Origin: Deltaproteobacteria bacterium | GTDB lineage: Bacteria > UBA10199 > JACPAL01 | Reading direction: 5' to 3' | Assembly (NCBI GenBank): GCA_016180845.1 | Contig: JACPAK010000001.1 | Span: 225,707 to 289,706 of the forward strand | Length of the DNA stretch: 64,000 bases | Shown: positions 3,025 through 31,948 of the stretch, in pieces | Layout of the letters: every line of letters begins with the position of its first letter | How positions within the stretch are numbered: position 1 is the stretch's first letter | Translations under genes and position numbers: made by a program | The notes under the pieces: generated by a model | The model's input: the letters and a program-made list of their open reading frames with translations, nothing else | The model's database searches: none | Told to the model about the DNA's origin: nothing

Positions 3025-3032
3025 TGGCTGAA

Positions 3033-3329: not shown

Positions 3330-3389
3330 AGATTGTCCCCCTTTTGGTTTGGATTCTATTATCACAAATATTAAAGGAGTCGACAGAAT

Positions 3390-8400: not shown

Positions 8401-9009
8401 ACACTTGAAACAACTGGTCCCGCTCGACCCCCCTTTCAGATCCTCTCCATGACAAGACCGGCAGAGATCCTTCCCTTCCCCTTTCGCAAACTCTCCGTGA
8501 AAATTAGCCCCCTTCCATTCGGAAGAATGGGGATAGACTTCGTGACACTTTGTGCAGGAAACCTTGGTCAATCCGCCCGAGAGATCGGTCCCGTGACATT
8601 GAGTCGCACATGAAAGGCGGTCATTGGTTCTGACCCAAGTCCCGTGTCTCTCTTTCGATTTCCAGTCAGCCTCATGCGGGTAAAGGGGATGACAGCCCTG
8701 ACATGTCGGTGTTCTCTCGTTGGTCGTCGAACTGACCTTATGACACTTGAGACAGGCCGGAAGTCCGTACCGCTCCTTGCCACTCCCATGAGAGGCTGGT
8801 TCTTTCCACCCCTGCGGATGGGGAAAAAGGGGAAGAGGTTCTGCGATATTTCCGTCCGGAGAAATGCTGGGGGTAAGATCAGAAACATCACGGGAATGGG
8901 GCTTCTTTTTGGCACATCCAAAAAGAAGAAAAAGAAGAAAAAAAAAGACTAACCCTCTGAAAAAGACACCCTGACGCCAAGATCGTGGCAAGCGAAGACC
9001 CTCCATCAA
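5455..9009 (-). CDS. Giant multiheme cytochrome c lipoprotein, about 1184 aa and roughly 30 heme sites, with two C-terminal bacterial Ig-like domains
   Basis: Lipoprotein signal peptide (…FLLFLLFGC). About 23 canonical CxxCH motifs plus about 7 CX3-5CH variants. Recurring CxxCHxxYPHxxxW module. The C-terminal 230 aa contain two TxPTNGATxV…F(S/N)EPM Ig-like repeats. Confidence 0.85.
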   Translation of the reverse strand: MMEGLRLPRSWRQGVFFRGLVFFFLLFLLFGCAKKKPHSRDVSDLTPSISPDGNIAEPLPLFPHPQGWKEPASHGSGKERYGLPACLKCHKVSSTTNERTPTCQGCHPLYPHEADWKSKERHGTWVRTNDRLSCATQCHGTDLSGGLTKVSCTKCHEVYPHSSEWKGANFHGEFAKGEGKDLCRSCHGEDLKGGSSGTSCFKCHAIYPHEVGWGEKTKHAPYVLDNGREGCTTQCHGADLNGGLSQIACNRCHTLYPHGEGWQTQHGPTSLELGRTACQGCHGERGERLVAGKNCTTCHADYPHPASATWIPFSGGHGERVRVTYQGETEKCQLCHGADLKKVLKGQNCFSCHPSFAGSHPSGWREFEGHGSYALPVLMRNECRTCHSLTSDSSPRGNRRCGECHNPFPHPEGWRREQGQPQLHGDFVQENGRATCGTARCHGVNLIPDLQRTRGANCNECHSGFPETHSQDNWRGAAGHGAVVLRDGFNNCMTCHNREIAGTAAARPCLQCHLYPHELLPNWETTEHGPFAISDANRQLRCAGCHGTDFQREFDGRNCYSCHTNFPHRSGWTEYEVGTETWTEQECDGADEPTCWDVERSRAANFPSPHAAEYLEQQDNDFPDSFNRCSLCHGTNYAGGNSGRSCSGSGCHENYPHQLVTDWKTDQGGEHTTAYLDGVRGLRSSCTRCHLNFGAGPDGRATSCGSAACHPNYPHLRSPDVSEDQDWVTGSSSARHGDRFNASRVGCRSCHGDDYGGGISTISCYTCHPSYPHSSSTWWRGSGHGVSYSSRFTSATWGEADCGGCHDGSPTAFNETQTRATLVSRSYCYMCHQNYPHVGYEQIVTSGDPPTARTTSYNWEPVVSSTCGSRTAANFGHVLYLLDNNIDSVARGGCGSDGSCHTNGNRSYRTESTCGGVCHSSSRPFPPELPDCNPPGNDQVASGPPAVSSTIPTNGATGVALGTPFSPTTIRITFSEPMLRSTIAPPVENSFVVEKVSDGSRVAGRVACSADWCLTATFSPETPLQPNTQYRGRITTVVTDWGGTPLATDYRWTFTTLTPDTTRPIVNSTVPTNGATDVLTSTTIITVNFNEAMIRASVESSGVFTLSRRNWNSRTRRWEWLSVSGNVHCRTATCQAVDFTIATNARPLREETVYRATVTTNAQDLAGNRLATNHVWTFTTEGFE

Positions 9010-9099
9010 TATTATCGTCCAATAAGGCCTTAGGTAGATATGATACAGATCATCCCTTCGTAGGGCAAAAAGGTTTACTTATCAAAAGGGGGTGATTTT

Positions 9100-9351
9100 A
9101 TGCCGGGCCTCCACGTCAAATTCGAGATCTCGCCAGAGGAGTTTCTCTCACATCTGGCCGATGCCGCCTATCAGGTCGCCTTGAAACAAGGTTTTCGGGG
9201 TTCCTTCATCGATCTCCGATTGGGCCTTCAGAGGGCACTTCATGAAATGATCCGGAAAGATATGTTCGTCACCGATCTCTGCGGTCTCTACACCATCTGC
9301 CAGGAGGCAGAAAAAATCGAGCCCTGGTCGGAAAAGGCAGAGGAAGTGTGA
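9100..9351 (+). CDS. Hypothetical small protein (83 aa)
   Basis: ATG with a strong GGGGGTGA Shine-Dalgarno. No recognisable motif. Confidence 0.4.
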   Translation: MPGLHVKFEISPEEFLSHLADAAYQVALKQGFRGSFIDLRLGLQRALHEMIRKDMFVTDLCGLYTICQEAEKIEPWSEKAEEV

Positions 9352-16477: not shown

Positions 16478-16870
16478 TCAGATCTGATCGATCGTCGTTC
16501 CTTCCGCCCACTTCCGGAAGGCTGACTTGACCTCTTTCCAGGAAGAATGGAGGGGACAGTGGTGGGCCCCTCCGCACCGCTTCCAGCCAAAAATGCAATG
16601 TCCGTCCCCTGATGGATAACCGATGGCCCTTAAAATATCATCGATCCGGATTGATTCCGGGGGAGAGGCGAGTCGGTATCCGCCATCAGGCCCCTTGCGG
16701 GAGAGAAGAAGTCTCTTGCGAACGAGCGATCTCAAGACTTTAAAGAGAAAAGGAAGGGGAACATGGGTTAATCGGGCGAGGTCGCTGGCGTTAATCCCTC
16801 GATCAACACCCTGTCTCATGATCTCAACCATCACTCGCAACGCATATTCTGCTGTCTTCGGAAGCTGCAT
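16478..16870 (-). CDS. Rrf2-family transcriptional regulator (IscR/NsrR-like) with three Fe-S ligand cysteines
   Basis: N-terminal MQLPKTAEYALRVM HTH. C-terminal C-x6-C-x5-C cluster (CIFGWKRCGGAHHC). Divergent from the nxr-like operon. Confidence 0.7.
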   Translation of the reverse strand: MQLPKTAEYALRVMVEIMRQGVDRGINASDLARLTHVPLPFLFKVLRSLVRKRLLLSRKGPDGGYRLASPPESIRIDDILRAIGYPSGDGHCIFGWKRCGGAHHCPLHSSWKEVKSAFRKWAEGTTIDQI

Positions 16871-16976
16871 AAAAAATATTCTAAGATGAACCATACCGAA
16901 ATCACCTGACCACAATCATGTGATCGGCTGATTCGAATCATTCTCTCGAGACACGACTTCTCGATAATGGACCTTG

Positions 16977-19900
16977 ATGTCCAAAATACATCCCCTTTCT
17001 CGGCGTGAGTTCTTAAAAAAGGCAGGGCTAGGTGCAGGGGCTTATGCACTTTTATCGTCCAGCACCTACGCCTATTTAAAACCGATTGTCGGGGTTGATA
17101 ACCCGCTCGAATTTTATCCTTCACGCGACTGGGAAAAGGTCTACCGGGATCAATATCGATACGATTCTTCCTTCACGTTTGTCTGTTCCCCGAATGACAC
17201 CCATGCCTGTCGCGTGCGGGCCTTTGTCCGCAATGGGATCCTGGTCCGGACAGAGCAGAACTATGATGTCCAGAGATATTCCGATCTTTACGGCAACAAG
17301 GCCTCCCCGAACTGGAATCCACGCATGTGTCCGAAGGGGTATACCCTGGCACAACGGATGTACGGTCCGAATCGGCTCAAGGATCCCGTGGTGCGCAAGG
17401 GATGGCGTGCGTGGGTCAAGGATGGCTGTCCCTATCTGACCCCGGAACTCAAAAAGAAATACAAGTTTGACAGTCGCGGAAGCGACGAACTCCAATTCAT
17501 CGCATGGGACGAGGCGTATGATCTGGCCGCTCGGGCGATGATTGCGATTGCCACTATGTACAATGGTGACGAGGGGGCCAAACGGCTTGCCGAAGAGGGA
17601 TACGTTCCCGAGATGATCCAGCGGATGGAGGGATCGGGGATGCGCACCCTGAAATACCGCGGTGGGATGGGACTCCTCGGGGTCATCGGAAAGTTCGGGA
17701 TGTATCGCTTCTCGAACATGATGGCGCTGGTCGACAGCCACCTCCGTGGCGTAGAAGAAAAAGAGGCGAAGGGGGGGCGGAGTTGGGACAACTACACCGA
17801 ACATGGGGACCAAGCCCCCGGCTATCCTTTTGTCCACGGACTCCAGACCTCCGATTGCGATTTTAATGACCTCCGCTTTACGAAGCTTCATATCCAATGC
17901 GGCAAGAACCTCGTCGAGAACAAGATGCCGGAGTCCCACTGGTTTATCGAATCAATTGAGCGAGGGGCGAAGGTCGTCACAATCACGCCGGAATACAGCC
18001 CACCCGCAACCAAATCGGATTACTGGATCCCGGTCCGACCCGCCTCCGATGCGGCAATTTTTCTTGGGATTGCGAAGATCCTGATCGACCGGAAGTGGTA
18101 CGATGCCGAGTTCGTCAAAAAATTTACCGATCTCCCGCTTCTGGTCCGGACGGACAACCTCAAACGCCTGCATGCCGCCGAGGTTTTCCCCGGATACCAG
18201 CCGGGGTTGAGTCCCGAGGGGGCAAGCCTCAAGGAGCAAGGTCTTACGAAGGAACAATACGGGCAGTTGGGAGATTTTGTCGTGCGAGACACCGTCTCCG
18301 GCGATTTCAAGGCGGTCACGCGTGACGACGTCGGAAACCATCTGAAGGAAAAAGGGATCGATCCGGTTCTCGAATGGAGAGGCATGGTCAAAATGGCCGA
18401 TGGAACCACTGTCGAGACAACGACACTATGGGAGGCGTACAAGATCCACCTCAAGGACTACGACCTCGACACCGTCGCCGAAGTCACTCAGGCACCGAAA
18501 GGGTTGATCGAACAGCTGGCGAAGGACCTTGCAACAATCAAACCGGCCGCGATCCATATGGGTGAGGGGATCAATCACTGGTTCCATGCGACCGAGGTGA
18601 ATCGAGCGACGCTGCTCCCGCTCATGCTGACCGGAAACATCGGGCAGCAGGGGGCTGGCTCATTCACCTGGGCGGGCAATTATAAATCGGCCAATTTTCA
18701 GGCGGCTCCGGGTGTCGGCGCTGGCTTGGGTGTCTGGGTCGCCGAGGACCCGTTTCATCCCACGCTTGATTCCAAAACTCCCGGCAAGGACGTGCAGGTT
18801 AAAAACTACGCCCTCGAGGAAGGGGCCTCTTATTGGGCGCACGGAGATCATCCGCTGATCGTTGAAACCCCAAAGTTTGGTCGGAAGATGTTTACCGGAA
18901 AGACCCACATGCCCTCTCCGACGAAGGGGATGTGGTTCACCAACGTGAATCACATTAATAATTCGAAGTGGGCCTACCAGGTGATCAAGAACGTCTTGCC
19001 GACCTGCAACATGATCGCCGTGACGGATGTCGAACTGAACGGAACGATCGAATATGCCGACATCGCCTTCCCGGCCAGTTGGTGGGCGGAAATCGAAAAC
19101 TACGAGGTCACCAGCTCCTGCTCCAATCCGTTCCTCCAGATCTGGAAGGGATCGCTCAAGCCTCCTCTCAATACAAAAGACGACGTCCAGATCCTCGCGG
19201 GAGTTGCGAAGCGGTTGGGGGAAATTTTGGGCGACCGGCGGTTTGAGGATTATTGGAAATTTGTCCACCAGAAAAAGACAGAGGTTTATATCCAGAGACT
19301 CCTCGATGCCTCGATGACACTCCACGGTTACCGTTTCGATGACATTATCACAGGGAAATATGGGGAACCGGGGGCTGCCCTGATGCTCTACAGGACCTAT
19401 CCCCGCATCCCCTTCTGGGAACAGGTCCACGAGGACAAGCCTTTCTTTACCGATACCGGCAGACTCAACAGTTATTGCGACATCCCGGAGGCGATCGAAT
19501 ACGGGGAAAATTTTATTGTCCACCGCGAGGGACCGGAGGCGACCCCTTACCTCCCCAACGCCATCCTTTCCACCAATCCCCTGGTTCGCCCGGAAGATTA
19601 TGGAATCCCACCGGACGATATGGAGGCGGAGGCGCGTCACGTCCGCAATATCAAGATGTCCTGGCAACAACTCAAGGGGACCGAAAATCCGCTCTGGAGG
19701 CAGGGGTTTCAGTTTTACTGTGTCACCCCGAAGACGCGGCACACCGTCCATTCGCAGTGGTCCAATGTCACCTGGAATCGTGTCTGGGCAAGCAACTTCG
19801 CCGACCAGTTGCGTGAGGACAAGCGGCAACCGGACGCTGCCGATCATCAAGTCCATATCAATCCGCAGGCGGCGAAGGACCTTGGGATCAACGACGGTGA

Positions 19901-20426
19901 TTATGTCTATGTCGACGCCAACCCTGCAGACCGACCCTACATTGGTTGGAAGCCGGACGACCCCTTTTATAAGGTGGCGCGTCTCATGCTCCGCGCGAAG
20001 TACAATCCGGCCTATCCCTATCACGTGATAATGATCAAACATGGGACATGGATCGCGACGGAAAAGACCGTCAAGGCCCACGAAACCCGTCCTGACGGCC
20101 GGGCGCTTTCGGAGACCGGCTACCAGGCAAATTTCCGGTACGGTTCCCAGCAAAGCATCACGCGCGAATGGGCGATGCCGATGCACCAAACCGACACCCT
20201 CTTTCACAAGGCAAGATTGGGGCAGAGGTTTCTCTTCGGCGGCGAGGCGGACAACCACATGATCAATACCGTCCCGAAGGAAACGCTGGTTCGCGTGGTC
20301 AAGGCGGAGGATGGCGGGCTCGGAGGCAAGGGAAAGTGGGAGGGTGCGACGACGGGCCACACGCCCGGAGATGAAAACAGAGAGATGCAGATCTATCTCG
20401 CAGGAAGGTTTATCAAAAATGGCTGA
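16977..20426 (+). CDS. nxrA: TAT-exported molybdopterin oxidoreductase alpha subunit, type II DMSO reductase family, nitrite oxidoreductase/nitrate reductase-like (NxrA/NarG family, periplasmic type)
   Basis: Twin-arginine signal (SRREFLKKAGLGAGA). FTFVCSPNDTHACRVRAF Fe-S/His motif of NarG-like enzymes. About 1150 aa, matching periplasmic NxrA. Confidence 0.75.
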   Translation: MSKIHPLSRREFLKKAGLGAGAYALLSSSTYAYLKPIVGVDNPLEFYPSRDWEKVYRDQYRYDSSFTFVCSPNDTHACRVRAFVRNGILVRTEQNYDVQRYSDLYGNKASPNWNPRMCPKGYTLAQRMYGPNRLKDPVVRKGWRAWVKDGCPYLTPELKKKYKFDSRGSDELQFIAWDEAYDLAARAMIAIATMYNGDEGAKRLAEEGYVPEMIQRMEGSGMRTLKYRGGMGLLGVIGKFGMYRFSNMMALVDSHLRGVEEKEAKGGRSWDNYTEHGDQAPGYPFVHGLQTSDCDFNDLRFTKLHIQCGKNLVENKMPESHWFIESIERGAKVVTITPEYSPPATKSDYWIPVRPASDAAIFLGIAKILIDRKWYDAEFVKKFTDLPLLVRTDNLKRLHAAEVFPGYQPGLSPEGASLKEQGLTKEQYGQLGDFVVRDTVSGDFKAVTRDDVGNHLKEKGIDPVLEWRGMVKMADGTTVETTTLWEAYKIHLKDYDLDTVAEVTQAPKGLIEQLAKDLATIKPAAIHMGEGINHWFHATEVNRATLLPLMLTGNIGQQGAGSFTWAGNYKSANFQAAPGVGAGLGVWVAEDPFHPTLDSKTPGKDVQVKNYALEEGASYWAHGDHPLIVETPKFGRKMFTGKTHMPSPTKGMWFTNVNHINNSKWAYQVIKNVLPTCNMIAVTDVELNGTIEYADIAFPASWWAEIENYEVTSSCSNPFLQIWKGSLKPPLNTKDDVQILAGVAKRLGEILGDRRFEDYWKFVHQKKTEVYIQRLLDASMTLHGYRFDDIITGKYGEPGAALMLYRTYPRIPFWEQVHEDKPFFTDTGRLNSYCDIPEAIEYGENFIVHREGPEATPYLPNAILSTNPLVRPEDYGIPPDDMEAEARHVRNIKMSWQQLKGTENPLWRQGFQFYCVTPKTRHTVHSQWSNVTWNRVWASNFADQLREDKRQPDAADHQVHINPQAAKDLGINDGDYVYVDANPADRPYIGWKPDDPFYKVARLMLRAKYNPAYPYHVIMIKHGTWIATEKTVKAHETRPDGRALSETGYQANFRYGSQQSITREWAMPMHQTDTLFHKARLGQRFLFGGEADNHMINTVPKETLVRVVKAEDGGLGGKGKWEGATTGHTPGDENREMQIYLAGRFIKNG

Positions 20427-20772
20427 AGAGGAAAACAAAGTGTCGGCGAGTGCAGGATCTGGCTTTGCCAGTCCGGAGCGAGAGGGGACCGGGGGGAAGG
20501 GGCCCTCTTCCGCTTGCGGAAGGGGCAGCGTTCCCCCCGATCCAGAAGACCCGTTTGAGATGGTCCAGCAGTTTATCGACGTGCCGGCGGATGACCGGTT
20601 CTACGATCAGATGGCCCGGACGTTCATCGAGGAATATTTAATGATGGGATGGAGTGACGAAGAAATCTTCAGTCTCTTTCAGGAACCTTTTTACAGAGGC
20701 ACGCATGATATTTTGCAAAAGAAGGGTGAGGCCTTCGTGAAGAGCCTGATCCATGAGGTGAGACATGGCTAA
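20419..20772 (+). CDS. Small hypothetical protein encoded between the alpha and beta subunits; low-complexity N-terminus
   Basis: The ATG overlaps the alpha stop codon. G/S/P-rich N-terminus, then a conserved-looking acidic helical segment. The ORF ends where the beta gene starts. Confidence 0.4.
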   Translation: MAEEENKVSASAGSGFASPEREGTGGKGPSSACGRGSVPPDPEDPFEMVQQFIDVPADDRFYDQMARTFIEEYLMMGWSDEEIFSLFQEPFYRGTHDILQKKGEAFVKSLIHEVRHG

Positions 20773-21964
20773 GGTGTACAACTGGCAGATCGGGCGCGAG
20801 ATGGATTATCCGTATGACGAGATCCATCCGAAACGGCAATTCGCCGCCGTTTTTAACACGAATCGTTGCATCGCCTGCCAGACCTGTTCGATGGCCTGCA
20901 AGTCGACCTGGACCTTCTCGAAGGGGCAGGAATATATGTGGTGGAATAACGTCGAGACAAAGCCTTACGGAGGGTATCCACGCAACTGGGATCTGAAAAT
21001 CCTCTCTCTCCTGGCCAAGGCGGATCCGACCGGAGAAAAAACGATCTTTGAGGCGGCTCCCAGCGGAGAGAGGGTCTTGGGTTATCTGCCGGACGATCAG
21101 GAATGGAAGGCACCGAATCTCTACGAAGATACCTCCACAAAATACGATTCCGGTTCTGCCTTGGGCCTTTCCGGAAAAGGGGTCAGTCTCCCCGAGCATA
21201 AGGCCTGGTTCTTCTACCTCCAGAGAATTTGTAACCACTGCACCTACCCTGCCTGCCTGGCCGCTTGTCCGCGCAAGGCGATCTATAAACGGCCGGAAGA
21301 TGGGATCGTCCTGATCGATCAAGAGCGTTGTCGAGGTTACCGAAAATGTATGGAGGCCTGCCCTTACAAGAAACCGATGTTCAATGCCGAGACGCGCGTC
21401 TCGGAAAAATGCATCGCCTGTTACCCAAGGATCGAGGGAAAAGACCCCCTCCTCAAGGGAAGGCGGATGGAGACCCGCTGCATGTCGGCCTGTGTCGGAC
21501 AGATTCGTTTGCAGGGACTGGTCGATATCAACAAGGACGGCAGCTGGACCGAAAACCAAAAAAGTCCGCTCTACTATCTCATCAAGAAAACGAAGATCGC
21601 CCTCCCGCTCTATCCGCAGTTCGGGACGGAACCGAATATTTACTACATCCCGCCACGTTGGGTTCCGAAATCCTACCTCCATCAGATGTTTGGACAGGGC
21701 GTCGATGAGGCGATCGACAGATACCTGGCACCCGATCGCGAATTGCTGGCGGTCCTTCAACTCTTCCGGCGGAGTCAGGAGATCATCTTCCGCTATGAGA
21801 TTGAAGAAGGGCCGAAGGTCTTTGAGACGACTGTTCATGGGAAGCCGTTTTCTCTCTACAACGACACGATCATCGCCTTCGCAGAGGATGGGAAAGAAAT
21901 CTTCCGAACGACGGTAGAGGAGCCGGTTCATATCCGACCCAAGGAGCGAACCAATGCTGTTTAA
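20765..21964 (+). CDS. nxrB: Fe-S beta subunit of the NXR/NAR-like enzyme (NxrB/NarH family, four Fe-S clusters)
   Basis: MAKVYNWQIGREMDYPYDE…CIACQTCSMACK…EYMWWNNVETKPYGGYP. Multiple ferredoxin-type Cys motifs. Confidence 0.8.
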   Translation: MAKVYNWQIGREMDYPYDEIHPKRQFAAVFNTNRCIACQTCSMACKSTWTFSKGQEYMWWNNVETKPYGGYPRNWDLKILSLLAKADPTGEKTIFEAAPSGERVLGYLPDDQEWKAPNLYEDTSTKYDSGSALGLSGKGVSLPEHKAWFFYLQRICNHCTYPACLAACPRKAIYKRPEDGIVLIDQERCRGYRKCMEACPYKKPMFNAETRVSEKCIACYPRIEGKDPLLKGRRMETRCMSACVGQIRLQGLVDINKDGSWTENQKSPLYYLIKKTKIALPLYPQFGTEPNIYYIPPRWVPKSYLHQMFGQGVDEAIDRYLAPDRELLAVLQLFRRSQEIIFRYEIEEGPKVFETTVHGKPFSLYNDTIIAFAEDGKEIFRTTVEEPVHIRPKERTNAV

Positions 21965-23135
21965 GTTGTTTCTCCCCCTTATTGCCTTCGTTTTTGGCTG
22001 TGCGGCTGGAGCCAAAACAGATCCGATGGCGGAGGAGCTTTTGTCCAAGCTCTCTCAAGAGGGGAACCTGATCACCGTCGCTCAAGCAAAAGGGGAAATC
22101 CCTACCGACCCCACAGATCCCGCATGGCAAACAACACCGGAATCAATAATTCCACTCGTCTCACAAACCTCTCTCTCCCCCAAAACCCCCGTCTTTCAAA
22201 GAACCGATATCTCCGTTCGTGTGCTTTATGCCGGCAAAGAGATCGGTTTCCTGATCTCCTGGAGTGACCCGACCCGGAGTGAGAGCGAGGCAGGTGTCAC
22301 AAAATTTCGCGATGCGGTCGCGATCGGGTTTGCGCCGAACCTCAAAAATGCCGATTCGCTTCCTTACATCGGAATGGGAAACAAGGGGCGTCCGATGGCT
22401 ATCTGGCACTGGAAGGCAAGCTGGCAAGAGGATGTCAACCACGGCTATCAAGGGGTCGGCGAAGCTCATGCAGGGATGGTACCGAATATTTCTCCTATCC
22501 CCCATCGAACCGCTGACGAGGCCGGCTCCCCGATGGCACAGATGAAACGAACAAGTCCCGTTGAAAACCTTCTCGCTGAGGGGTTCGGAACGCTCACGTC
22601 GATACCGGGCAAGAATTTAACCGGAAATGGGATCTGGAATCAGGGACGATGGCATGTCGTGGTCAAGGGGGTACGACGCGCCGGTGGGAAAGGGATAGAT
22701 CCGGTCACCTTCGCCATCTGGGATGGGGCGAAGGAGAATCGAAACGGAATGAAGGGTCTGACCCGGTGGCGATTTCTCCGTTTTGAAGGAGAACCGGTCC
22801 CGCCAGACCTGCTCAACTCATTGATCATCGGCCCCCTGCCAGGTGCCGATCCGAAGAGAGGCAAACAACTCGTCACAGAAATGGGCTGCGTCTCCTGCCA
22901 CAACTTTCCGAACAACCCGACAGCCAATGACGTCGGCCCGGATCTGGCACATGCCGGCTCGATCCATCGTCCGGAGTATCTCCTCGAGTCGATCAAAGAT
23001 CCGAACGCCGTTATTGTCCCGGCGCCCGGTTACTTCGACCCAGAGACCTGGACCTCGACGATGCCGTCCTTCGGCGATCAGATCCCAGAAAAGGATTACA
23101 ACGATGTCGTCGAATACTTGAGGAGTCTGCAATGA
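21954..23135 (+). CDS. Gamma subunit: EbdC/DMSO-reductase-type-II heme-b domain fused to a C-terminal class-I cytochrome c domain; lipoprotein
   Basis: Lipobox (LIAFVFGC). Ethylbenzene-dehydrogenase-gamma-like domain (IWHWKASWQED…). C-terminal CVSCHN with a downstream Met-containing segment. Confidence 0.65.
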   Translation: MLFKLFLPLIAFVFGCAAGAKTDPMAEELLSKLSQEGNLITVAQAKGEIPTDPTDPAWQTTPESIIPLVSQTSLSPKTPVFQRTDISVRVLYAGKEIGFLISWSDPTRSESEAGVTKFRDAVAIGFAPNLKNADSLPYIGMGNKGRPMAIWHWKASWQEDVNHGYQGVGEAHAGMVPNISPIPHRTADEAGSPMAQMKRTSPVENLLAEGFGTLTSIPGKNLTGNGIWNQGRWHVVVKGVRRAGGKGIDPVTFAIWDGAKENRNGMKGLTRWRFLRFEGEPVPPDLLNSLIIGPLPGADPKRGKQLVTEMGCVSCHNFPNNPTANDVGPDLAHAGSIHRPEYLLESIKDPNAVIVPAPGYFDPETWTSTMPSFGDQIPEKDYNDVVEYLRSLQ

Positions 23136-23782
23136 ACCATCCATCGGACCTCTATAAAATTCTTGCCATCTGCTTTCGTCGCCCGGATGAGCCTCTCTTC
23201 GAGATATTTCGAAAAACAGACTCCTTTCGGGACATCCTCAAGGGCACCTCATTAGAAGGACTGCTTTCGGAACATACGCGGCTTTTTTCCTTAAGCGTGG
23301 CGGGCGGGATTCCTCCCTATGAAACCGAATATGGGCATAAAGATATCTTCTTCAAGACACAGCGTATGGCAGACATCGCCGGCTTTTGTCATGCCTTTGG
23401 GGTTGAGACGACAGACACGCCCCCTGAACGAATAGACTTTATCGGGTCCGAGCTGGAATTGATGTATTGGATCACCCTTAAGGAACAAAGAGCCATGGAT
23501 GCGGGAAAGACCGAACAAGCCGAGATCTGCCGGGATGCCGCAGCCAAATTTCTTCAGGACCACCTGGGACGCTGGGGCTCTTATTTCGGAGATCAGATCG
23601 CAAAATCGGCACACCTTCCTTTTTACAAACAAGTTGGTCAATCGCTTTTTGAATTGATTGAATCCGAATGCGAGCGTCTGAACGTGCAACCGGAAAGGGT
23701 CACCGGATGGAATCCGGAGCCGCTTTCTGCCACGGAGTTTGAGTGTGGGAGTGAGACAGGGTGTAAAGGAGAACTTTCATGA
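23132..23782 (+). CDS. TorD/NarJ/DmsD-family cytoplasmic chaperone (delta subunit)
   Basis: ATGA coupling. E(Y)xxLF-type TorD signature (EHTRLFSL…). Redox-enzyme maturation protein context. Confidence 0.65.
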   Translation: MNHPSDLYKILAICFRRPDEPLFEIFRKTDSFRDILKGTSLEGLLSEHTRLFSLSVAGGIPPYETEYGHKDIFFKTQRMADIAGFCHAFGVETTDTPPERIDFIGSELELMYWITLKEQRAMDAGKTEQAEICRDAAAKFLQDHLGRWGSYFGDQIAKSAHLPFYKQVGQSLFELIESECERLNVQPERVTGWNPEPLSATEFECGSETGCKGELS

Positions 23783-24240
23783 CAAGTATCACCGACTATT
23801 ACGCAAAAGACCATGACCGACTGGACGGTCTCTTCAAGACCTTCCAGTCAACCAAGAGAACTGATTTCGGGAGGGCGAAGGTGGCATTCGTTGAATTTAA
23901 ATTTGGTCTCCAGAGACATATCATCTGGGAGGAGGATATCCTCTTCCCCTTCTTTGAACAAAAGACGGGGATGAGGGATGGTAGCCCGACCGCTGTCATG
24001 CGAATGGAGCATCGTGAGATCCGTGACGCGCTCGAAAGCATCCACGCGAAGGTCGCCAAAAAAGACCCGAACTCCGATGAGTCAGAGGAGAGACTCGTCA
24101 CCGTCCTGACACAACATAACGTGAAGGAGGAGGAGATCCTCTATCCGGCTATCGATCGCTTGCTAACAGATCAAGAGAAGGAAACTGTTTTCAAGAGGAT
24201 GGAAGACATACCCCCGGAACGCTATGAAACCTGTTGCTGA
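23779..24240 (+). CDS. Hemerythrin-like (HHE cation-binding) domain protein
   Basis: H…HxxxE spacing (HREIRDALE, HNVKEEEILYP, DHDRL). Confidence 0.6.
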   Translation: MTSITDYYAKDHDRLDGLFKTFQSTKRTDFGRAKVAFVEFKFGLQRHIIWEEDILFPFFEQKTGMRDGSPTAVMRMEHREIRDALESIHAKVAKKDPNSDESEERLVTVLTQHNVKEEEILYPAIDRLLTDQEKETVFKRMEDIPPERYETCC

Positions 24241-24628: not shown

Positions 24629-25846
24629 GTGATTTCCGCTCATGAAGCGCAAAACATTATCCTCGAAAAAACAAGCCGGCTTGGAAACGAAGAGGTCCCC
24701 CTGTCCCTGTCGCTGCACCGATACCTCGCAGAGCCGATCACTGCCCCGATCGATCTTCCACCCTTTGACAACGCCGCTATGGATGGCTTTGCAATTCAAA
24801 GTGGCGATACGAAAACTGCCTCGGCCCAAAACCCGGTCACATTAAAAGTTGTTGGGACAATCGCTGCTGGAGATGCTCCCTCTCAAGCCGTTCTCAAATC
24901 AGGCGAATATTTCCGAATCATGACGGGGGCTCCCGTTCCGGATGGTGCCGATGCCGTCGTGCCCTTTGAAGAGGCTGTTCACACCCCCCTTGAGGTAAGA
25001 ATCATAAAACCAGTTCCCTCAGGTTCCAATATCCGCCTTGCCGGTGAGGATGTAAAAAAGGATCAAAGGATTCTCGATGTCGGAGAAAAGATCACCTCTC
25101 GTACGATTGCGCTCCTGGCGGCATTAGGTGTTTATCGAATCCCGGTTTTCAGGCATCCGAACATCAAGATCCTCGTAACCGGAAGCGAACTCACCGCCGT
25201 CGGACACCCTCTGCACGATGGAAAGATCTATAACAGCAATGGCCCTGCACTGACGGCCGCGTTACAAGAAATCGATATTATCCCTCAAATAGTCGTCTCC
25301 TCCGCGGATGTCGTCTCTGATCTCAAAACCTTCTTCACAGCCTCAGAAGAGGCGGATGCGCTGATAACAATCGGGGCGGTTTCCACCGGCGATTTTGATT
25401 TTATCCCTCAGGTCCTGAAGGGGATCGGTGCCGAAATAGCCTTTCACAAGGTCTCCATAAAACCAGGCAAGCCGCTCCTCTTCGCCACTTGGAAAGGGAA
25501 ACCGATCTTTGGGCTCCCAGGGAATCCGGTCTCCGCCCTAATGGTTTTTGAGCGCTTTGTCCGACCGGCACTCCTCAAGATGATGGGGGCAAATAATTTT
25601 TTACGAAGACGAGGGATCGCGGTCGCTACCGAAACTCTGTCTGGGAGCTTGGGCAAGGAAAACTATCTCCGAGGAATCGTTGAATCGTCTGGCAATGGAT
25701 CCCATGCCCGCTCCGCCGGGAAGCAAGGATCAGCCCATCTTCTTCCACTCGCTCGAGCTAATGCGATCTTGATCGTCCCTCCTGAAAAAGAGGAGATCCG
25801 CGCCGGAGAAACAGTCGAATTCGAAACATTTTTGGAGGAACTATGA
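24629..25846 (+). CDS. moeA: Molybdopterin molybdotransferase MoeA
   Basis: MoeA N-terminal domain (…PFDNAAMDGFA…) and MoCF-binding region (GGVSTGDFD-like). GTG start with a GGAAAGGAG Shine-Dalgarno. Confidence 0.8.
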   Translation: MISAHEAQNIILEKTSRLGNEEVPLSLSLHRYLAEPITAPIDLPPFDNAAMDGFAIQSGDTKTASAQNPVTLKVVGTIAAGDAPSQAVLKSGEYFRIMTGAPVPDGADAVVPFEEAVHTPLEVRIIKPVPSGSNIRLAGEDVKKDQRILDVGEKITSRTIALLAALGVYRIPVFRHPNIKILVTGSELTAVGHPLHDGKIYNSNGPALTAALQEIDIIPQIVVSSADVVSDLKTFFTASEEADALITIGAVSTGDFDFIPQVLKGIGAEIAFHKVSIKPGKPLLFATWKGKPIFGLPGNPVSALMVFERFVRPALLKMMGANNFLRRRGIAVATETLSGSLGKENYLRGIVESSGNGSHARSAGKQGSAHLLPLARANAILIVPPEKEEIRAGETVEFETFLEEL

Positions 25847-26088
25847 AGATAAAACTCCGTTTTTTCTCACTGCTTCATCATTACTTTGGCACCGGAGAAA
25901 TGGAAACCAATCTTGATTCTCCAAAAACCGTTCAAGAAGTTTTTTTTGATCTGTTTGAGGACAAGGAACTCGCGGAGAAACTAGCGCGATCGATCCGGTT
26001 TGCCGTGAACTGGGAATATGTCGAGCCGGAGATGGTCGTCCACGAAGGTGACGAAGTCGCATTTATACCACCTGTTAGCGGAGGATAG
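25843..26088 (+). CDS. moaD: Molybdopterin synthase sulfur-carrier subunit MoaD
   Basis: 81 aa ending in GG. ATGA overlap with moeA. Confidence 0.75.
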   Translation: MKIKLRFFSLLHHYFGTGEMETNLDSPKTVQEVFFDLFEDKELAEKLARSIRFAVNWEYVEPEMVVHEGDEVAFIPPVSGG

Positions 26089-26090
26089 AG

Positions 26091-26495
26091 ATGATTGAAA
26101 TAACCGAAAGGGCAATCAACGTTTCGAAAGTTCTTCAATCAATCCTTGCGAAAGAGGCAGGGGCCCTCGCTCATTTCATTGGAACGATTCGAAAAGAGGA
26201 AGAGATTTCTGGACTTTTCTACGAATGCTATCCGGGGATGGCCCAAAAGACCCTCGAAAAAATTTCGACAGAAGCAAAAAAGAAATGGCCTCTTTTCAAA
26301 ATCTCCATTGTCCATCGTTATGGCTGGGTCGGTCTCGGCGAGCCGTCTGTTGTGATTGCCGTCTCAAGCGCGCATCGAAAAGAGGCGTTCGAGGCCTGCC
26401 AGTTTATCATCGATCAGATCAAAGAGAGGGTGCCGATCTGGAAGCGTGGGTTGCCGGCCAGAGAAGAGAGGTTTGCCTATGCCGAAAATCAATGA
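26091..26495 (+). CDS. moaE: Molybdopterin synthase catalytic subunit MoaE
   Basis: 134-aa MoaE-like protein immediately after moaD. Confidence 0.75.
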   Translation: MIEITERAINVSKVLQSILAKEAGALAHFIGTIRKEEEISGLFYECYPGMAQKTLEKISTEAKKKWPLFKISIVHRYGWVGLGEPSVVIAVSSAHRKEAFEACQFIIDQIKERVPIWKRGLPAREERFAYAENQ

Positions 26496-27057
26496 TGTGA
26501 CCGGCGTTATTTTAGCGGGCGGGAGATCAAGCCGTTTCGGAACCAACAAGGCGCTCGCCCTTTTCCAGGGGATCCCCCTGATCGATCGGGTTCTGAATGT
26601 CATGAGTCCGCTCTTCCATGACCTGATGATCGTCACCAACACGCCGGAGATTTACGAACGCCTGCATCTCCCCCTTGTGAAAGATTTCGAACCCTACTTA
26701 GGACCGTTGGGAGGAATTTACACCGCCCTCCGAGAGACGAGAAACGATCGAATCTTTGTTGTCGGCTGCGACATGCCACTGCTGGATCCAAAAGTCATCT
26801 CGGGAATCATCCAGAAGTCAGAGGAAGCGGATGCGGTTGTACCGATTCACGACGGCATCCGTGAGTTCCTGATGGCAGTCTATTCCCGCAAACTCCTCCC
26901 GGAGATCTGCAAGAGCCTTGGCGAAGGAAGGCTTTCCGTAAAGGAGCTCTGTTTTCATATACCGTGTATCGAATGGATCCCGGTCAAGGGGGATTCCTGG
27001 ACCGCGATCAATACCGCTGAGGAACTCAAAAAATTGGAGGAGAGGTATGCTCGTTGA
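26478..27057 (+). CDS. mobA: Molybdenum cofactor guanylyltransferase MobA
   Basis: GVILAGGRSSRFG…NKAL motif. Internal ATG at 26478; the longer track ORF overlaps moaE out of frame. Confidence 0.75.
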
Positions 27058-28033
27058 TGGTTTTCAAAGACAGATCGACTACCTCCGCCTCTCTGTAACC
27101 GATCTATGTAATCTCCGCTGTCAGTACTGTATGCCGTTCGAGGGAGTTCCCAGGATGGGGAAGGAAAACATCCTGACCTTTGAAGAGATCACTCGGCTCG
27201 TTCAGATCCTCGTCCCTCTCGGGATCCGTCGTGTCCGGCTCACAGGGGGCGAACCCCTCGTTCGAAGGGACGTCCCAAGCCTGGTAAAAAGACTGAAGGA
27301 AATTCCAGGTCTTCAAGAGGTGCTGATGACCACAAACGCCATCCTTTTGAAACCGGTGGCGCAGGAACTGAAAAATGCCGGCCTCGAAAAGATCAACATC
27401 CACCTGGATACCCTCTCTCCGGAAAAATTCAGGAAGATTACACGTTGGGGAGAATTCCAGAATGTCCTCGATGGAATCGAAGAGGCCAAGAAGGCAGGCC
27501 TAAAACCGATCAAACTGAATGCCGTCATTCAAAAGGGGATCAATGACGATGAGGTTGAGGGACTCCTGCTCTTCGCTGCCGAGAAGGGACTGGTCCTTCG
27601 ATTGATTGAACTAATGCCGATCGGACCGGCACACGAGATGATGGGGAAGCGATTCATCCCGATAGAGAGCTTGAGATCCCGACTGGAAGAAAAATATTCG
27701 CTCCTGCCGGCCCGTCTGGAGATCGGGAGCGGACCGGCTGTCTATTATAAGGTCAGGGAGCTGGGAACCCTCATTGGATTTATCAGCCCGGTCTCTCAAC
27801 CGTTTTGCAAGAGCTGTAATCGAATTCGGATCGGAAGCGACGGGCGATTTCAGGATTGTCTGGCGTACGATGGAAGTTTTTCTCTGAGGGACCTTCTTCG
27901 GAATCCGAATTATTCCGATAAAATGGTCGCTGAAGAGATTGTTCATCTGCTGCAGGGGAAGCGAGAGAGTCACAAGAATTTCATACAGGATGAAACCATT
28001 CAAACCCCCTGTATGTATGGGATTGGAGGATAA
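27047..28033 (+). CDS. moaA: GTP 3-prime,8-cyclase MoaA (radical SAM)
   Basis: LRLSVTDLCNLRCQYC radical-SAM motif and the C-terminal MoaA CxxC…C region. Confidence 0.85.
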   Translation: MLVDGFQRQIDYLRLSVTDLCNLRCQYCMPFEGVPRMGKENILTFEEITRLVQILVPLGIRRVRLTGGEPLVRRDVPSLVKRLKEIPGLQEVLMTTNAILLKPVAQELKNAGLEKINIHLDTLSPEKFRKITRWGEFQNVLDGIEEAKKAGLKPIKLNAVIQKGINDDEVEGLLLFAAEKGLVLRLIELMPIGPAHEMMGKRFIPIESLRSRLEEKYSLLPARLEIGSGPAVYYKVRELGTLIGFISPVSQPFCKSCNRIRIGSDGRFQDCLAYDGSFSLRDLLRNPNYSDKMVAEEIVHLLQGKRESHKNFIQDETIQTPCMYGIGG

Positions 28034-28035
28034 AC

Positions 28036-28941
28036 ATGATCGACATCTCGGATAAAATCGAAACCCTTCGAACCGCTGTCGCCGAGTCAAAGGTGATTGC
28101 CAAAAAAGAGACAATCGACAGGGCAGTTCGTGGTGAGACTCCTAAAGGAGAGGTTCTTCCGATTGCTCGAGCCGCAGCGGTACTGGCGGCAAAAAAGACA
28201 TCGGAACTGATTCCCTATTGCCACCCACTTCCTCTGGATTCTGTCACTATTTCATTTGAACCTGAAAATTCGCGAATTCTCATCCGCTCTGAAGTGAAGA
28301 CAGTTGGAAGGACTGGTGTTGAGATGGAGGCGTTAACAGCAGCTTCTATTGCTGCCCTCACGATTTACGACATGGTCAAGGGAATCGATAAAGAAGTGGC
28401 CATCGGCGAAACGAGACTTGTCGAAAAACATGGAGGGAAGAGCGATTTTGAGGAAAAATTTCTCACCCCTCTTCGAACCGCTGTCCTCGTCACCTCGGAC
28501 TCTGTCTCAGAGGGAAAGAAGACGGACAAATCGGGCAAATTCATTGTGGACGAGATGAAGAAATTTCCCGTCGTAGTCCAGCATTATGAGATCGTCCCCG
28601 ATGAGAAGGAAAAAATTCGCCAAAAGATAGTGTCCTGGATCGAAGAGGGAATTCAACTCATCCTAACCACAGGGGGCACAGGGCTAGGGCCCAGAGATGT
28701 CACCGTAGAGACGGTCCGGGAGATAAGCGAGCGGGAGGTGCCAGGCATCGCCGAGGCAATGCGAGTCTTCGGCCAAAGACGAACACCGTACGCAATGCTC
28801 TCACGTGGAGTTGTGGGCGTCAGGAGAAACACACTCATCGTTACATTCCCCGGCTCTTCCAATGGTGTCAGAGAATCGATACGAGCAATCTTTCCGAATG
28901 TGCTGCATGCCTTCAATATGATGACGGGGGGAAGACATTAA
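28036..28941 (+). CDS. Bifunctional MoaC (cPMP synthase) / MogA-MoaB-like molybdopterin adenylyltransferase fusion
   Basis: N-terminal MoaC (…IPYCHPLPLDSV…). C-terminal MoCF-biosynthesis domain with TTGGTGLGPRD. Confidence 0.75.
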   Translation: MIDISDKIETLRTAVAESKVIAKKETIDRAVRGETPKGEVLPIARAAAVLAAKKTSELIPYCHPLPLDSVTISFEPENSRILIRSEVKTVGRTGVEMEALTAASIAALTIYDMVKGIDKEVAIGETRLVEKHGGKSDFEEKFLTPLRTAVLVTSDSVSEGKKTDKSGKFIVDEMKKFPVVVQHYEIVPDEKEKIRQKIVSWIEEGIQLILTTGGTGLGPRDVTVETVREISEREVPGIAEAMRVFGQRRTPYAMLSRGVVGVRRNTLIVTFPGSSNGVRESIRAIFPNVLHAFNMMTGGRH

Positions 28942-28944
28942 AAT

Positions 28945-29703
28945 ATGCCAGACCCGATTTTTTATTTGATGCCGCTATTTTTTTTAACGGCCCTCATCTA
29001 CTCAACAGTCGGACTTGGAGGCGGATCAACGTATCTCGCCCTGCTGGTTCTCTTTTCAATCCCCTACCAGGCGATCCCGAAGATCGGCCTCATCTGTAAC
29101 CTGATTGTCGTGACGGGGGGATGTTTCTTCTATATAAAGGAAGGGCACTTCTCCTTCAAAAAAACAGTTCCATTTGTCCTAACCTCGATCCCCTTCGCCT
29201 ACCTCGGAGGACGGATTCCGATTCAGAAGGAATTTTTTCAACTTCTCTTAGGTTTTTCCCTTCTCGCCGCCGCCGTCAGGATGCTCCTCGCAGAAAAGGC
29301 CTACTCCGCCTCAGGTTCCATCGGATGGAAGAAATCTCTTCTGATCGGGTTGCCCATCGGCGCCCTTCTTGGTCTTCTCTCGGGGCTTGTCGGGATCGGT
29401 GGAGGAATCTTTCTCTCTCCCCTCCTCTGTCTCCTTCACTGGACAGATGCGAAAGGGGCCGCTGCCTCAGCCAGTTTCTTCATCCTCGTAAATTCCCTGG
29501 CAGGGTTGTCAGGACAGATCATGAAAAGTGGCGTTCTTCCGGAGATGATCTTCATCATTCCTCTGGGTGTGGCAGCATTGTTAGGGGGTCAGATCGGAAG
29601 TCGGCTCGGATCCCGCGAGATCCCAAAACTTGCCGTTCAGAGGATCACATCAATTCTGATCTTTTTTGTGGCAGGCCGCCTTCTCTGGAACGGATTTTTA
29701 TGA
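28945..29703 (+). CDS. TSUP/TauE-SafE-family (DUF81) membrane exporter
   Basis: Two-repeat polytopic protein with GLGGG…G motifs. Confidence 0.6.
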   Translation: MPDPIFYLMPLFFLTALIYSTVGLGGGSTYLALLVLFSIPYQAIPKIGLICNLIVVTGGCFFYIKEGHFSFKKTVPFVLTSIPFAYLGGRIPIQKEFFQLLLGFSLLAAAVRMLLAEKAYSASGSIGWKKSLLIGLPIGALLGLLSGLVGIGGGIFLSPLLCLLHWTDAKGAAASASFFILVNSLAGLSGQIMKSGVLPEMIFIIPLGVAALLGGQIGSRLGSREIPKLAVQRITSILIFFVAGRLLWNGFL

Positions 29704-30773
29704 TCATCAAGCCCTCACTCAGACTCCTCTTCTGGGAAACAACGACGGGATGCAATCTCGCCTGTATCCACTGCCGCCGTTTGGATGTCGCCACGGAGAT
29801 GATGCGAGATGACTTAAGCCTCGCCGAATCCTTCACCTTTATTCAGCAATTAAGAGAAGTGGGTCATTGCATTCTCGTCCTCTCCGGCGGTGAACCTCTG
29901 ATTCGAAAAGATATCTTCGATATCGCGCAGTATGCCAACTGGCAGGGACTCACCGTTGCGCTCGCGACAAACGGGACCCTGATTGATCGCGATGTCGCTT
30001 CCAAAATCCGAAAATCGGGAATCCATCGTGTCGCAATCAGCATTGATGGAAGTGATCCAAGCACGCATGATGATTTTCGCAAACAACCTGGCTCTCTCGC
30101 CGGAGCCCTTCAGGGAATGACCTTCTGTCGGCAGGAAGGGATCAGTCTGCAGATCAACTGCACGATCACTCAGCATAACGTCCATCAACTGGATCCGCTT
30201 TATCAATTGGCCCTCGAGCACCAGGCGGATGCGTTTCACCTCTTCATGTTGGTCCCGGTCGGCTGCGGGATGTCAATCGCCGATAGCCACATGCTCTCAG
30301 CCGAGAAGTATGAGGAGGTTCTAAATTGGATCTATGATCGGGCTCAGGAAAAAAAGATGTTTGTAAAGGCGACCTGCGCGCCGCACTATTTTCGGGTAGT
30401 GAATCAACGAGCTAAAAAAGAGCACCGCCCAATCGGGGGGGAGAAACAGGGGATGCATGCCTTTACCCGTGGTTGTTTGGCCGGCACCGACATCTGTTTC
30501 GTCTCGCACAAGGGCGACGTCTTCCCGTGTGGCTACCTTCCAGTTCCAGCTGGGAATATCCGTCATCAATCGTTCCGTGAGATCTGGGAAAAATCACCCG
30601 TCTGGGAAGGCTTCCGAAACACCGATCTTCTCGAAGGAAAGTGTGGGCTCTGCGAGTTCAAGAATATCTGTCTAGGCTGCCGGGCCCGCGCCTATTACGC
30701 CACAGGAAATTTTCTCGCGGAGGAGCCGTACTGTGCCTATGAACCGGTTGCCATGAGAAGGAGGGCCCGATGA
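29700..30773 (+). CDS. Radical SAM/SPASM-domain protein, AhbD/NirJ-like (heme synthase family)
   Basis: CNLACIHC radical-SAM motif. C-terminal SPASM Cys cluster (CAPHYF…CLAGTDICFVSHKGDVFPCGYLP…CGLCEF…CLGCRARAY). Confidence 0.6.
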   Translation: MIIKPSLRLLFWETTTGCNLACIHCRRLDVATEMMRDDLSLAESFTFIQQLREVGHCILVLSGGEPLIRKDIFDIAQYANWQGLTVALATNGTLIDRDVASKIRKSGIHRVAISIDGSDPSTHDDFRKQPGSLAGALQGMTFCRQEGISLQINCTITQHNVHQLDPLYQLALEHQADAFHLFMLVPVGCGMSIADSHMLSAEKYEEVLNWIYDRAQEKKMFVKATCAPHYFRVVNQRAKKEHRPIGGEKQGMHAFTRGCLAGTDICFVSHKGDVFPCGYLPVPAGNIRHQSFREIWEKSPVWEGFRNTDLLEGKCGLCEFKNICLGCRARAYYATGNFLAEEPYCAYEPVAMRRRAR

Positions 30774-31948
30774 TCAACGTGTCCAAACTCTACTGCGGAC
30801 ATGAGACGGAAAGTGATCGACTTCGTTATGGGGCCCACAAACAAACGAAATTAAGCGAGATCCGGCCGGTCGTAGTCTGGAATACCACCCGAAGGTGCAA
30901 TCTCAATTGCCTGCATTGTTACAGCGATTCTGAAAATAAAAACTACACCGGTGAGCTCACGACGGAAGAGGGGAAAAGACTGCTAAATGATTTAGCCGGC
31001 TTCAAGGCCCCCGCTGTTTTGCTCTCCGGCGGAGAACCCTTGATGAGGGGCGATCTTTTTGAACTTGTCGCGCATGGTCGTTCCTTGGGTCTCCGATTTA
31101 CCCTTTCGACGAATGGGACACTGATCAATCATTCAATGGCAAAAAAGATCTATGACAGTGGATTCGCCTATGTCGGGATCAGTCTGGACGGAATCGGTCC
31201 TACCAATGACCTCTTTCGTGGGAAGCTCGGTGCCTTCGAGGGGGCGCTTCGGGCGTTCCGAAATCTGAAATCGATCGGTCAAAAGGTCGGCCTCAGGATG
31301 ACGCTGACACGACACAATATCTCCGAACTCTCACGGATCTTCGACTTGATCGAAGAGGAGAAGATCGACCGCGCCTGTTTTTACCACCTCGTTCCTTCCG
31401 GGCGAGGCCGAATGATGGCCGATGACCTCCCGACATCCGAGGAGATACGACAGGCGGTTGAATTGATCTGCGAGAAGACGAAGAAGTGGTTTCAACGAGG
31501 GACTCCAAAGGAGATCTTGACGGTCGACAATCATGTCGATGGGATCTTCGTCTACCTGAAACTCCTCCGGGAAGACCCTGCACGGGCGGCAAAGATTTAC
31601 GAACTCCTCAAGATCAATGGAGGGGCGCTCAAGAGTTCTGGCGTTGGAATTGGCTGTATCGATTTTCTTGGGCATGTCCACGCCGACCAGTTCTGGATGC
31701 ACTACTCCCTCGGCAATGTCCGCAAACGTCCCTTCTCTGAAATCTGGCGTGATGAGCGCGAACCGCTTCTCGCGGGTCTCAGGAATCGAAAATCATTTCT
31801 GACAGGACGTTGCGCGAGTTGTCCCTATCTTGACCTTTGTGGTGGATCCCTCCGCGTTCGGGCAGAGCTACTGACCGGCGACCGCTGGGCGACTGATCCA
31901 GCCTGTTACCTTACAGGTGAAGAATTTGGTCGGGGCGCAGGGATTTGA
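30770..31948 (+). CDS. Radical SAM/SPASM-domain protein, AhbC/NirJ-like
   Basis: LYCGHE…RLRYG N-terminus. CNLNCLHC motif. C-terminal CASCPYLDLCGG…CYLTGEE. The 3-prime end overlaps the tRNA-Pro on the opposite strand by about 22 nt. Confidence 0.55.
   Translation: MINVSKLYCGHETESDRLRYGAHKQTKLSEIRPVVVWNTTRRCNLNCLHCYSDSENKNYTGELTTEEGKRLLNDLAGFKAPAVLLSGGEPLMRGDLFELVAHGRSLGLRFTLSTNGTLINHSMAKKIYDSGFAYVGISLDGIGPTNDLFRGKLGAFEGALRAFRNLKSIGQKVGLRMTLTRHNISELSRIFDLIEEEKIDRACFYHLVPSGRGRMMADDLPTSEEIRQAVELICEKTKKWFQRGTPKEILTVDNHVDGIFVYLKLLREDPARAAKIYELLKINGGALKSSGVGIGCIDFLGHVHADQFWMHYSLGNVRKRPFSEIWRDEREPLLAGLRNRKSFLTGRCASCPYLDLCGGSLRVRAELLTGDRWATDPACYLTGEEFGRGAGI

Follow-up and report, generated by a model that had tools for sequence, protein, structure and literature searches.

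Nitrite oxidoreductase (NXR) is the source of nearly all nitrate on Earth. NXR and nitrate reductase (NAR) are reversible relatives. In the characterised type II enzymes of the dimethyl sulfoxide (DMSO) reductase family, the gamma subunit carries a single heme b, as seen in EbdC (PDB 2IVF chain C; 214 aa), in which heme b is the only heme and the partner cytochrome is a separate protein, and in the soluble NXR-C of Kuenenia stuttgartiensis (KsNXR-C; Kustd1704, PDB 7B04 chain C; 322 aa) (PMC8387239). EbdC and the gamma subunits of Ser, Clr and Ddh form the periplasmic electron exit of the type II enzymes and deliver to c-type cytochromes (PMC3578206), and in the Kuenenia enzyme (KsNXR) heme b is concluded to pass its electrons on to 'another binding partner' (PMC8387239). 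The destination of the electrons after the heme b of NxrC (PMC8387239) and the membrane attachment of NXR (PMC3578206, PMC6606698) are described as unresolved in the literature. A further group, comprising alt_NxrC, PcrO and NirB, combines the EB_dh domain of these gamma subunits with class I heme-c domains in one polypeptide of 500-570 aa, in which an N-terminal diheme module precedes EB_dh and some members end with a C-terminal transmembrane helix; these proteins belong to N-oxyanion or chlorate respiration and are usually encoded on top of a canonical gamma subunit (PMC3578206, PMC6606698, PMC3884062). Here, we describe the gamma subunit gene of an NXR-type molybdoenzyme in a stretch of 64,000 nucleotides (the window) from contig JACPAK010000001.1 of a Deltaproteobacteria bacterium. 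An earlier note on this DNA had proposed that the gene encodes a lipoprotein in which an EbdC-type heme-b domain continues into a cytochrome c, setting it apart from characterised gamma subunits with their single heme b, and on the latter point it agrees with the structural work on EbdC and KsNXR-C (PMC8387239).

The gamma gene is a single open reading frame (ORF) of 393 aa on the forward strand with zero internal stops on translation, and the mature protein is expected at ~41 kDa. Its ATG overlaps the stop of the beta gene by 11 nt, and its own stop overlaps the start of the delta gene as ATGA. The gene is made up of the following elements:

21941..21946, + strand: perfect Shine-Dalgarno sequence AAGGAG, 7 nt before the gamma ATG, read directly
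21954..23135, + strand: gamma subunit, with a signal peptide with lipobox, an EB_dh heme-b domain and a class I cytochrome c domain
21954..22001, + strand: signal peptide ending in the lipobox V-F-G-C (Cys16 codon 21999..22001), matched by two lipobox patterns
22116..22751, + strand: EB_dh (EbdC/NxrC-type) heme-b domain, residues 55-266 (Pfam)
22848..23129, + strand: class I cytochrome c domain, residues 299-392 (PF00034, PF13442)

Both domains were recognised by Pfam models above their cut-offs: PF09459 (EB_dh) scored 69.1 bits against a cut-off of 33.3 (E 8e-19), PF00034 (Cytochrom_C) 38.9 bits against 21.3 over residues 301-392, and PF13442 30.6 bits against 27. The continuous ORF from EB_dh into a CVSCH cytochrome c domain, as claimed in the earlier note, was thereby upheld, and the heme ligands and the position in the operon are in line with it. 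In phmmer alignments, Met141 (22374..22376) and Lys267 (22752..22754, immediately behind the EB_dh match) align with Met108/Lys201 of EbdC and Met155/Lys305 of KsNXR-C, which are the crystallographic heme-b ligands of these proteins (PMC8387239). Judged from these alignments, the EB_dh domain of gamma has the same Met/Lys pair as both solved homologues, where it ligates heme b. The CVSCH motif occupies residues 312-316 (22887..22901) and the distal ligand Met370 lies at 23061..23063. In an alignment of 43 fused homologues, reaching down to 27% identity, M141, K267, C312, C315, H316 and M370-P371 are invariant. The cysteines C16, C312 and C315 are the full set in the protein.

An AlphaFold2 model of gamma, built on the alignment of the 43 fused homologues, reached a mean pLDDT (predicted local distance difference test) of 84.6 and a pTM (predicted template modelling score) of 0.85. 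Poor confidence was confined to residues 175-195, and the linker between the two domains, which is conserved among the fused homologues, was modelled at a pLDDT of ~95. The top Foldseek matches of the model were 7b04_C (KsNXR-C) and 2ivf_C (EbdC). With KsNXR-C, gamma shares the EB_dh fold, the Met/Lys ligands, Sec export and closely related NxrA/NxrB partners (PMC8387239), at ~23% identity in a structural alignment; in contrast to gamma, KsNXR-C has neither a lipobox nor a CxxCH motif. With EbdC and the gamma subunits of Ser, Clr and Ddh it shares the same domain and the Met108/Lys201-type ligation. A ~60-residue insertion (residues 160-200, partly of low confidence in the model) is common to gamma and NXR-C and absent from EbdC. 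The sequence and the structure model give good support to gamma as a genuine gamma subunit of an NXR-type enzyme, predicted to bind two hemes.

The N-terminus of gamma, MLFKLFLPLIAFVFGC, fits two lipobox patterns, PROSITE-style and G+LPPv2, both with Cys16 as the lipobox Cys, as the earlier note had suggested from the sequence. PS51257-type rules call for a positive n-region, a short hydrophobic region and a lipobox Cys at position 15-35, and all of these were found in gamma, with K4 in the n-region and a hydrophobic stretch of 11 residues. Of the 18 orthologues with at least 48% identity and intact N-termini, 17 carry a Cys where the hydrophobic stretch ends, directly in front of the mature domain, and the flanking residues vary. 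The residue at position +2 after Cys16 is Ala and not Asp, with the reservation that the E. coli sorting rule may not fit this host. The gamma subunit is probably lipid-anchored, and with Cys16 lipidated the alpha-beta-gamma complex would be tethered to a membrane surface in the periplasm.

The gamma gene lies between beta and delta in an operon that includes a complete set of molybdenum cofactor genes:

16478..16915, - strand: Rrf2-family regulator, divergent (PF02082, E 1e-25)
16974..20426, + strand: alpha, molybdopterin subunit, NxrA-type, 1150 aa (PF00384; probable start ATG 16977)
20311..20772, core 20545..20772, + strand: small conserved ORF between alpha and beta, start uncertain
20765..21964, + strand: beta, four-cluster Fe-S subunit, 399 aa (PF13247, E 1e-24; TIGR03478, E 2e-80)
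23132..23782, + strand: delta, TorD/NarJ-type assembly chaperone (PF02613, E 1e-14; TIGR03482)
23779..24240, + strand: hemerythrin-domain protein (PF01814, E 7e-19), following delta also in the loci L001, L003 and L088
24325..24501, + strand: TatA/E-family protein, 58 aa (PF02416 on the L088 and L001 gene calls)
24629..28941, + strand: molybdenum cofactor genes MoeA, MoaD, MoaE, MobA, MoaA and a MoaC-MoaB/MogA-type fusion (Pfam; same order in L001)

The alpha subunit matched Kuenenia NXR-A (7b04_B) with 1729 bits over residues 8-1148, and matches to PcrA, EbdA and NarG were far weaker. The enzyme is predicted to be periplasmic because alpha starts with a twin-arginine translocation (Tat) signal, SRREFLKK, and by its sequence it is an NXR-type molybdoenzyme of the Nitrospira/Nitrospina/anammox lineage. 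The same operon, including the fused gamma gene, was found in other metagenome-assembled genomes (MAGs; L001, L003/L006 and L005) with alpha subunits 75-88% identical to that of the window, and independent MAGs keep the order alpha, small ORF, beta, gamma, delta. Genes near the operon encode rubrerythrin, an Nfn-like pair, subunits of a 2-oxoacid:ferredoxin oxidoreductase and the Rrf2 regulator, which point to an anaerobic or microaerobic lifestyle of the host. Catalysis may therefore run towards nitrite oxidation or towards nitrate reduction. The label nxrC, under which the earlier note had placed the gene, presumes nitrite oxidation, and the neighbouring genes look anaerobic.

Taken together, gamma is best read as the Sec-exported gamma subunit of a Tat-exported enzyme of the NXR lineage, which would hold a heme b and a heme c, be anchored by a lipid and act as an electron relay in an undecided direction; we estimate the probability of this joint reading at roughly 70%. 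Electrons would pass from the molybdenum centre through the clusters FS0-FS4 to heme b and on to the fused heme c, which may deliver them to a c-type acceptor, either soluble or in the membrane, for example a terminal oxidase. In the case of nitrate reduction the same path would be used in reverse, with a quinol-oxidising complex as the source. The fusion would hard-wire to the enzyme a partner that anammox bacteria and Nitrospinota have as a separate protein.

Several observations weigh against this joint reading. The whole case for gamma rests on sequence and a structure model. TIGR03477, the NCBIfam model for the gamma subunit, which is based on short EbdC-like forms, matched gamma in two stretches with 106.8 bits, below its curated cut-off of 169.85. 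In Kuenenia, the monoheme cytochrome NXR-T, encoded in the same cluster as the enzyme, is structural and not an electron carrier (PMC8387239), and because of this precedent a relay role cannot be assumed. Three further points concern the anchor: the lipobox has Phe at position -2, where the strict consensus is [ASTVI], a signal peptidase I site (A-G-A, followed by K) lies four residues after Cys16, and fused relatives at 47% identity or below have ordinary signal peptides with no equivalent Cys. The lipid anchor is therefore not required by the fusion, and as judged from the N-termini it is a conserved trait of the sub-clade of the window protein rather than of the fusion as such.

These same three points, the last of them represented by the distant fused relatives P0023-P0044, also favour the alternative that the fused two-heme gamma is processed by signal peptidase I after A18-G19-A20 and, like Ebd, Ser, Clr, Ddh and KsNXR-ABC, forms a soluble periplasmic complex, as does the solubility of the characterised relatives (PMC8387239, PMC3578206). 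We regard a soluble gamma as unlikely, since the Cys position is kept in the close orthologues despite variable surroundings, the hydrophobic region, with 11 residues, has the short length commonly seen in signal peptidase II substrates, both lipobox patterns fit, and Cys16 is the sole Cys outside CxxCH.

Among 1.84 billion cluster representatives, an exhaustive HMMER search retrieved 2128 hits at E <= 1e-3, of which the best 150 were classified: 44 have CxxCH C-terminal to EB_dh as in the window protein (type A), 82 have no heme c (type B), and 24 have the N-terminal diheme module (type C). A scan of species-representative genomes placed the C-terminal fusion with two molybdoenzyme lineages. 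With NXR-type alpha subunits it occurs in the clade of the window protein, in the P0037 clade, where the order is alpha-beta-delta-gamma, and in Omnitrophota (L018). With canonical type II alpha subunits (920-956 aa, closest to PcrA/EbdA) it occurs in Campylobacterota, Aquificota, Rhodocyclales, Sulfuricellaceae and Nitrospinota. The fused gammas of the canonical lineage have the domain order and the invariant ligands of the window protein; in contrast, their partner alphas are only 22-25% identical to that of the window, and no lipobox was noted in their N-termini. Other relatives of the NXR lineage (Verrucomicrobiota, Brocadiia, Methylomirabilales and Nitrospinota L042) carry the N-terminal diheme type beside alpha, which has been published as alt_NxrC (PMC3578206, PMC6606698). 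In a neighbour-joining tree of EB_dh domains, a method too coarse to tell one origin of the C-terminal fusion from two, the window clade is sister to the unfused and N-terminal-diheme forms and separate from the type C proteins, and the fused group of Campylobacterota falls outside.

As proteins with EB_dh and heme-c domains exist and are often encoded beside NXR-type genes (PMC3578206, PMC3884062, PMC6606698), the product of the gamma gene could be a free periplasmic heme b/c carrier like alt_NxrC, PcrO (Dsui_0143) or NirB instead of a stoichiometric subunit. This is improbable in view of the opposite domain order of the known carriers with their N-terminal diheme module; the single CxxCH of the window protein is C-terminal to EB_dh, outside the definition of the alt_NxrC type. 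In addition, the gene occupies the canonical gamma slot, overlapping beta and delta, no second EB_dh gene was found in the 64-kb window, and the best solved match of the protein is the in-complex NXR-C. Downstream of an NXR-type alpha 70% identical to that of the window, the Omnitrophota locus L018 (7513..10222) encodes a gamma subunit with C-terminal monoheme domain (429 aa) and, directly after it, a protein with N-terminal diheme module and EB_dh (467 aa). Since both forms are encoded side by side in a single operon, they are distinct proteins and not interchangeable.

The earlier note had treated the fusion as a departure from the known gamma subunits, which holds in part. The C-terminal form appears without published description, in that our literature search found no account of a gamma with C-terminal monoheme domain or of NxrC as a lipoprotein, which does not prove that none exists. 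However, the fusion is frequent in metagenomes, and heme b/c EbdC-like proteins of other domain order have been published (PMC3578206, PMC3884062). The fused gamma, which is widespread among uncultured bacteria, belongs to a known category, as a variant of the EbdC/NxrC gammas and the heme b/c EbdC-like proteins. The NCBI label of the window protein, 'MAG: c-type cytochrome [Deltaproteobacteria bacterium]', conceals a large family of two-heme gammas serving at least two molybdoenzyme lineages. The 'monoheme cytochrome' of the perchlorate island of Arcobacter sp. CAB (PMC3656443) could be related to the fusion. For the NxrC of Nitrotoga (369-372 aa, 'predicted heme-binding site') no motif is given in the literature, and cluster look-ups of similar-sized hits returned no Nitrotoga names.

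The kinship of the fused cytochrome was traced by searches of solved structures and a hidden Markov model (HMM) scan of fetched loci, as a word-based homologue search with the 108-aa domain had returned two fragments only. Searched alone, the domain had its best match in Kustd1711 (E 1.2e-9), ahead of every other solved cytochrome by 4-5 orders of magnitude (next 7e-5). Kustd1711, encoded in the Kuenenia nxr cluster, is a diheme cytochrome with potentials of ~+350 mV and a strongly acidic surface (PMC11791136). The fused domain shares with it (PDB 7ZS0) the motif GPDL...YL.ESI..P.AVIV, the distal Met (M370 aligns with Met292; PMC11791136), the acidic surface and the association with NXR genes; it differs from Kustd1711, which is free-standing with two heme domains, calcium sites and a 'nose' insertion, in having no 'nose'. 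Kustd1711 has been produced in Shewanella oneidensis. A free-standing Kustd1711 orthologue (E 2e-44 to 7ZS0) was found in the Nitrospinota MAG ETNP2_MAG_82 (L042 15950..16825, cut by the locus end), ~7 kb downstream of NXR-type genes, and it matches the HMM of the fused domain at E 5e-33. By these sequence matches, the fused cytochrome is a member of the Kustd1711 subfamily, suggesting that the fusion may attach the normal redox partner of the enzyme.

The charges of the two domains were compared as well. In the window protein, the cytochrome domain has a net charge of -7 (isoelectric point (pI) 4.6) and the EB_dh domain of +4 (pI 9.4), and 94% of the window clade have an acidic cytochrome domain. 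The EB_dh domain of unfused gammas has a mean net charge of -10.7 (n=71), that of C-terminally fused gammas of +1.6, the cytochrome carrying the negative charge instead. In KsNXR-C, the heme sits behind a positively charged groove (PMC8387239). The pairing of acidic cytochrome and basic EB_dh is suggestive in that it mirrors acidic Kustd1711 and the positive groove of KsNXR-C, net charge being a crude measure.

The kinship with Kustd1711 also argues against a position of the cytochrome c domain off the electron path, with a structural, assembly or sensing role like that of the low-potential NXR-T heme of the Kuenenia tubules. The precedent is a real one, as the NXR-T heme c is >40 Å away from heme b and has a potential of +120 mV (PMC8387239). 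Nevertheless, such a role is highly improbable for gamma, whose domain is unrelated to the four-helix-bundle NXR-T and related to Kustd1711 with its hemes at ~+350 mV (PMC11791136), whose His/Met ligation is fully conserved, and whose fusion is kept with two catalytic lineages, fitting a generic electron-transfer module. An error of sequencing or assembly that merged two genes is excluded as the origin of the fusion. The identical 393-aa ORF is present in three independent assemblies, the NCBI MAG (804,652-bp contig) and two Logan assemblies from groundwater (SRR12113431 and SRR12113433), none with a frameshift or stop between the domains. The same continuous architecture and domain order recur in >40 homologues, which come from many different samples and phyla, and above 37% identity each of the 40+ homologues is encoded by one gene. 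The linker is conserved and confidently modelled, and no point in favour of an artefact was found.

The relay reading of gamma yields a concrete hypothesis for the electron exit and the membrane attachment of periplasmic NXR. In its widest form, Kustd1711-type cytochromes would be the long-sought physiological partner docking on the heme-b face of NxrC in periplasmic NXRs generally (anammox, Nitrospina, possibly Nitrospira), which the window clade, as a 'Rosetta stone', would display in covalently attached form, and the anchor would supply the membrane association of NXR. We consider this generalisation possible, if rather doubtful. If true, a lipid anchor on the same subunit would explain the membrane association of NXR, which lacked a molecular explanation. 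The same fusion is present in a cultivable bacterium, where experiments are possible, as Sulfurospirillum arcachonense DSM 9755 (Campylobacterota) is a cultured carrier of a fused gamma with canonical alpha.

The canonical-lineage operons with fused gamma often adjoin rhodanese and sulfur-transport genes. Type II operons of S. arcachonense DSM 9755 (L038 2935..10199, with the genes of the fused-gamma enzyme at 3972..9242) and of a Nitrospinota MAG (L090 2169..10044) are flanked by genes for rhodanese, Sulf_transp and thioredoxin-like proteins. For operons of the L038/L090 type, the flanking genes suggest a sulfur compound as substrate.

Within the operon of the window, the small ORF between alpha and beta had no match to a Pfam family. 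In both L001 and L003 a gene of 83-85 aa is predicted at this site, and tblastn detected the ORF at 30-54% identity at the same position in most NXR-lineage loci from many phyla, with the core sequence EDPFEMVQQF...FYRGTHD...HEVRHG. It apparently lies outside the solved KsNXR-ABC complex. An Rrf2 gene is also located upstream of alpha in the orthologous loci L001 and L003, and as conserved companions of the operon the Rrf2 and hemerythrin proteins hint at NO- or O2-responsive control or repair. The hemerythrin protein (23779..24240) has weak similarity to the RIC/YtfE Fe-S repair proteins.

At the beginning of the window a cytochrome-rich cluster is located, which looks like an extracellular or periplasmic electron conduit:

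56..9078, both strands: cytochrome-rich cluster
566..1894: NrfD-family membrane protein
1891..3024: tetraheme class I cytochrome, after the NrfD gene
3393..3680, - strand: diheme ORF
3677..4243, - strand: 7-heme MtrC-like ORF
4212..5645, - strand: 477-aa ORF, no Pfam match
5455..9009, - strand: 23-CxxCH protein with Big_5 domains

The abundance of multiheme genes in the window implies that a c-type cytochrome maturation system is present in the genome. The earlier note had suggested that gamma could hand electrons to this nearby multiheme cluster (1858-9078). We considered such a link and dropped it, having found no evidence of any kind: the multiheme cluster is ~8 kb away from alpha and ~13 kb from gamma, partly on the opposite strand, and unrelated metabolic genes lie between it and the operon.

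On the other side of the operon, a 935-aa ORF (32048..34855, - strand) had no Pfam match. The molybdenum cofactor block ends with a TauE-family gene, which is followed by two tandem radical SAM/SPASM genes (29700..31948, + strand); in L001, an MFS transporter is found at the place of this pair.

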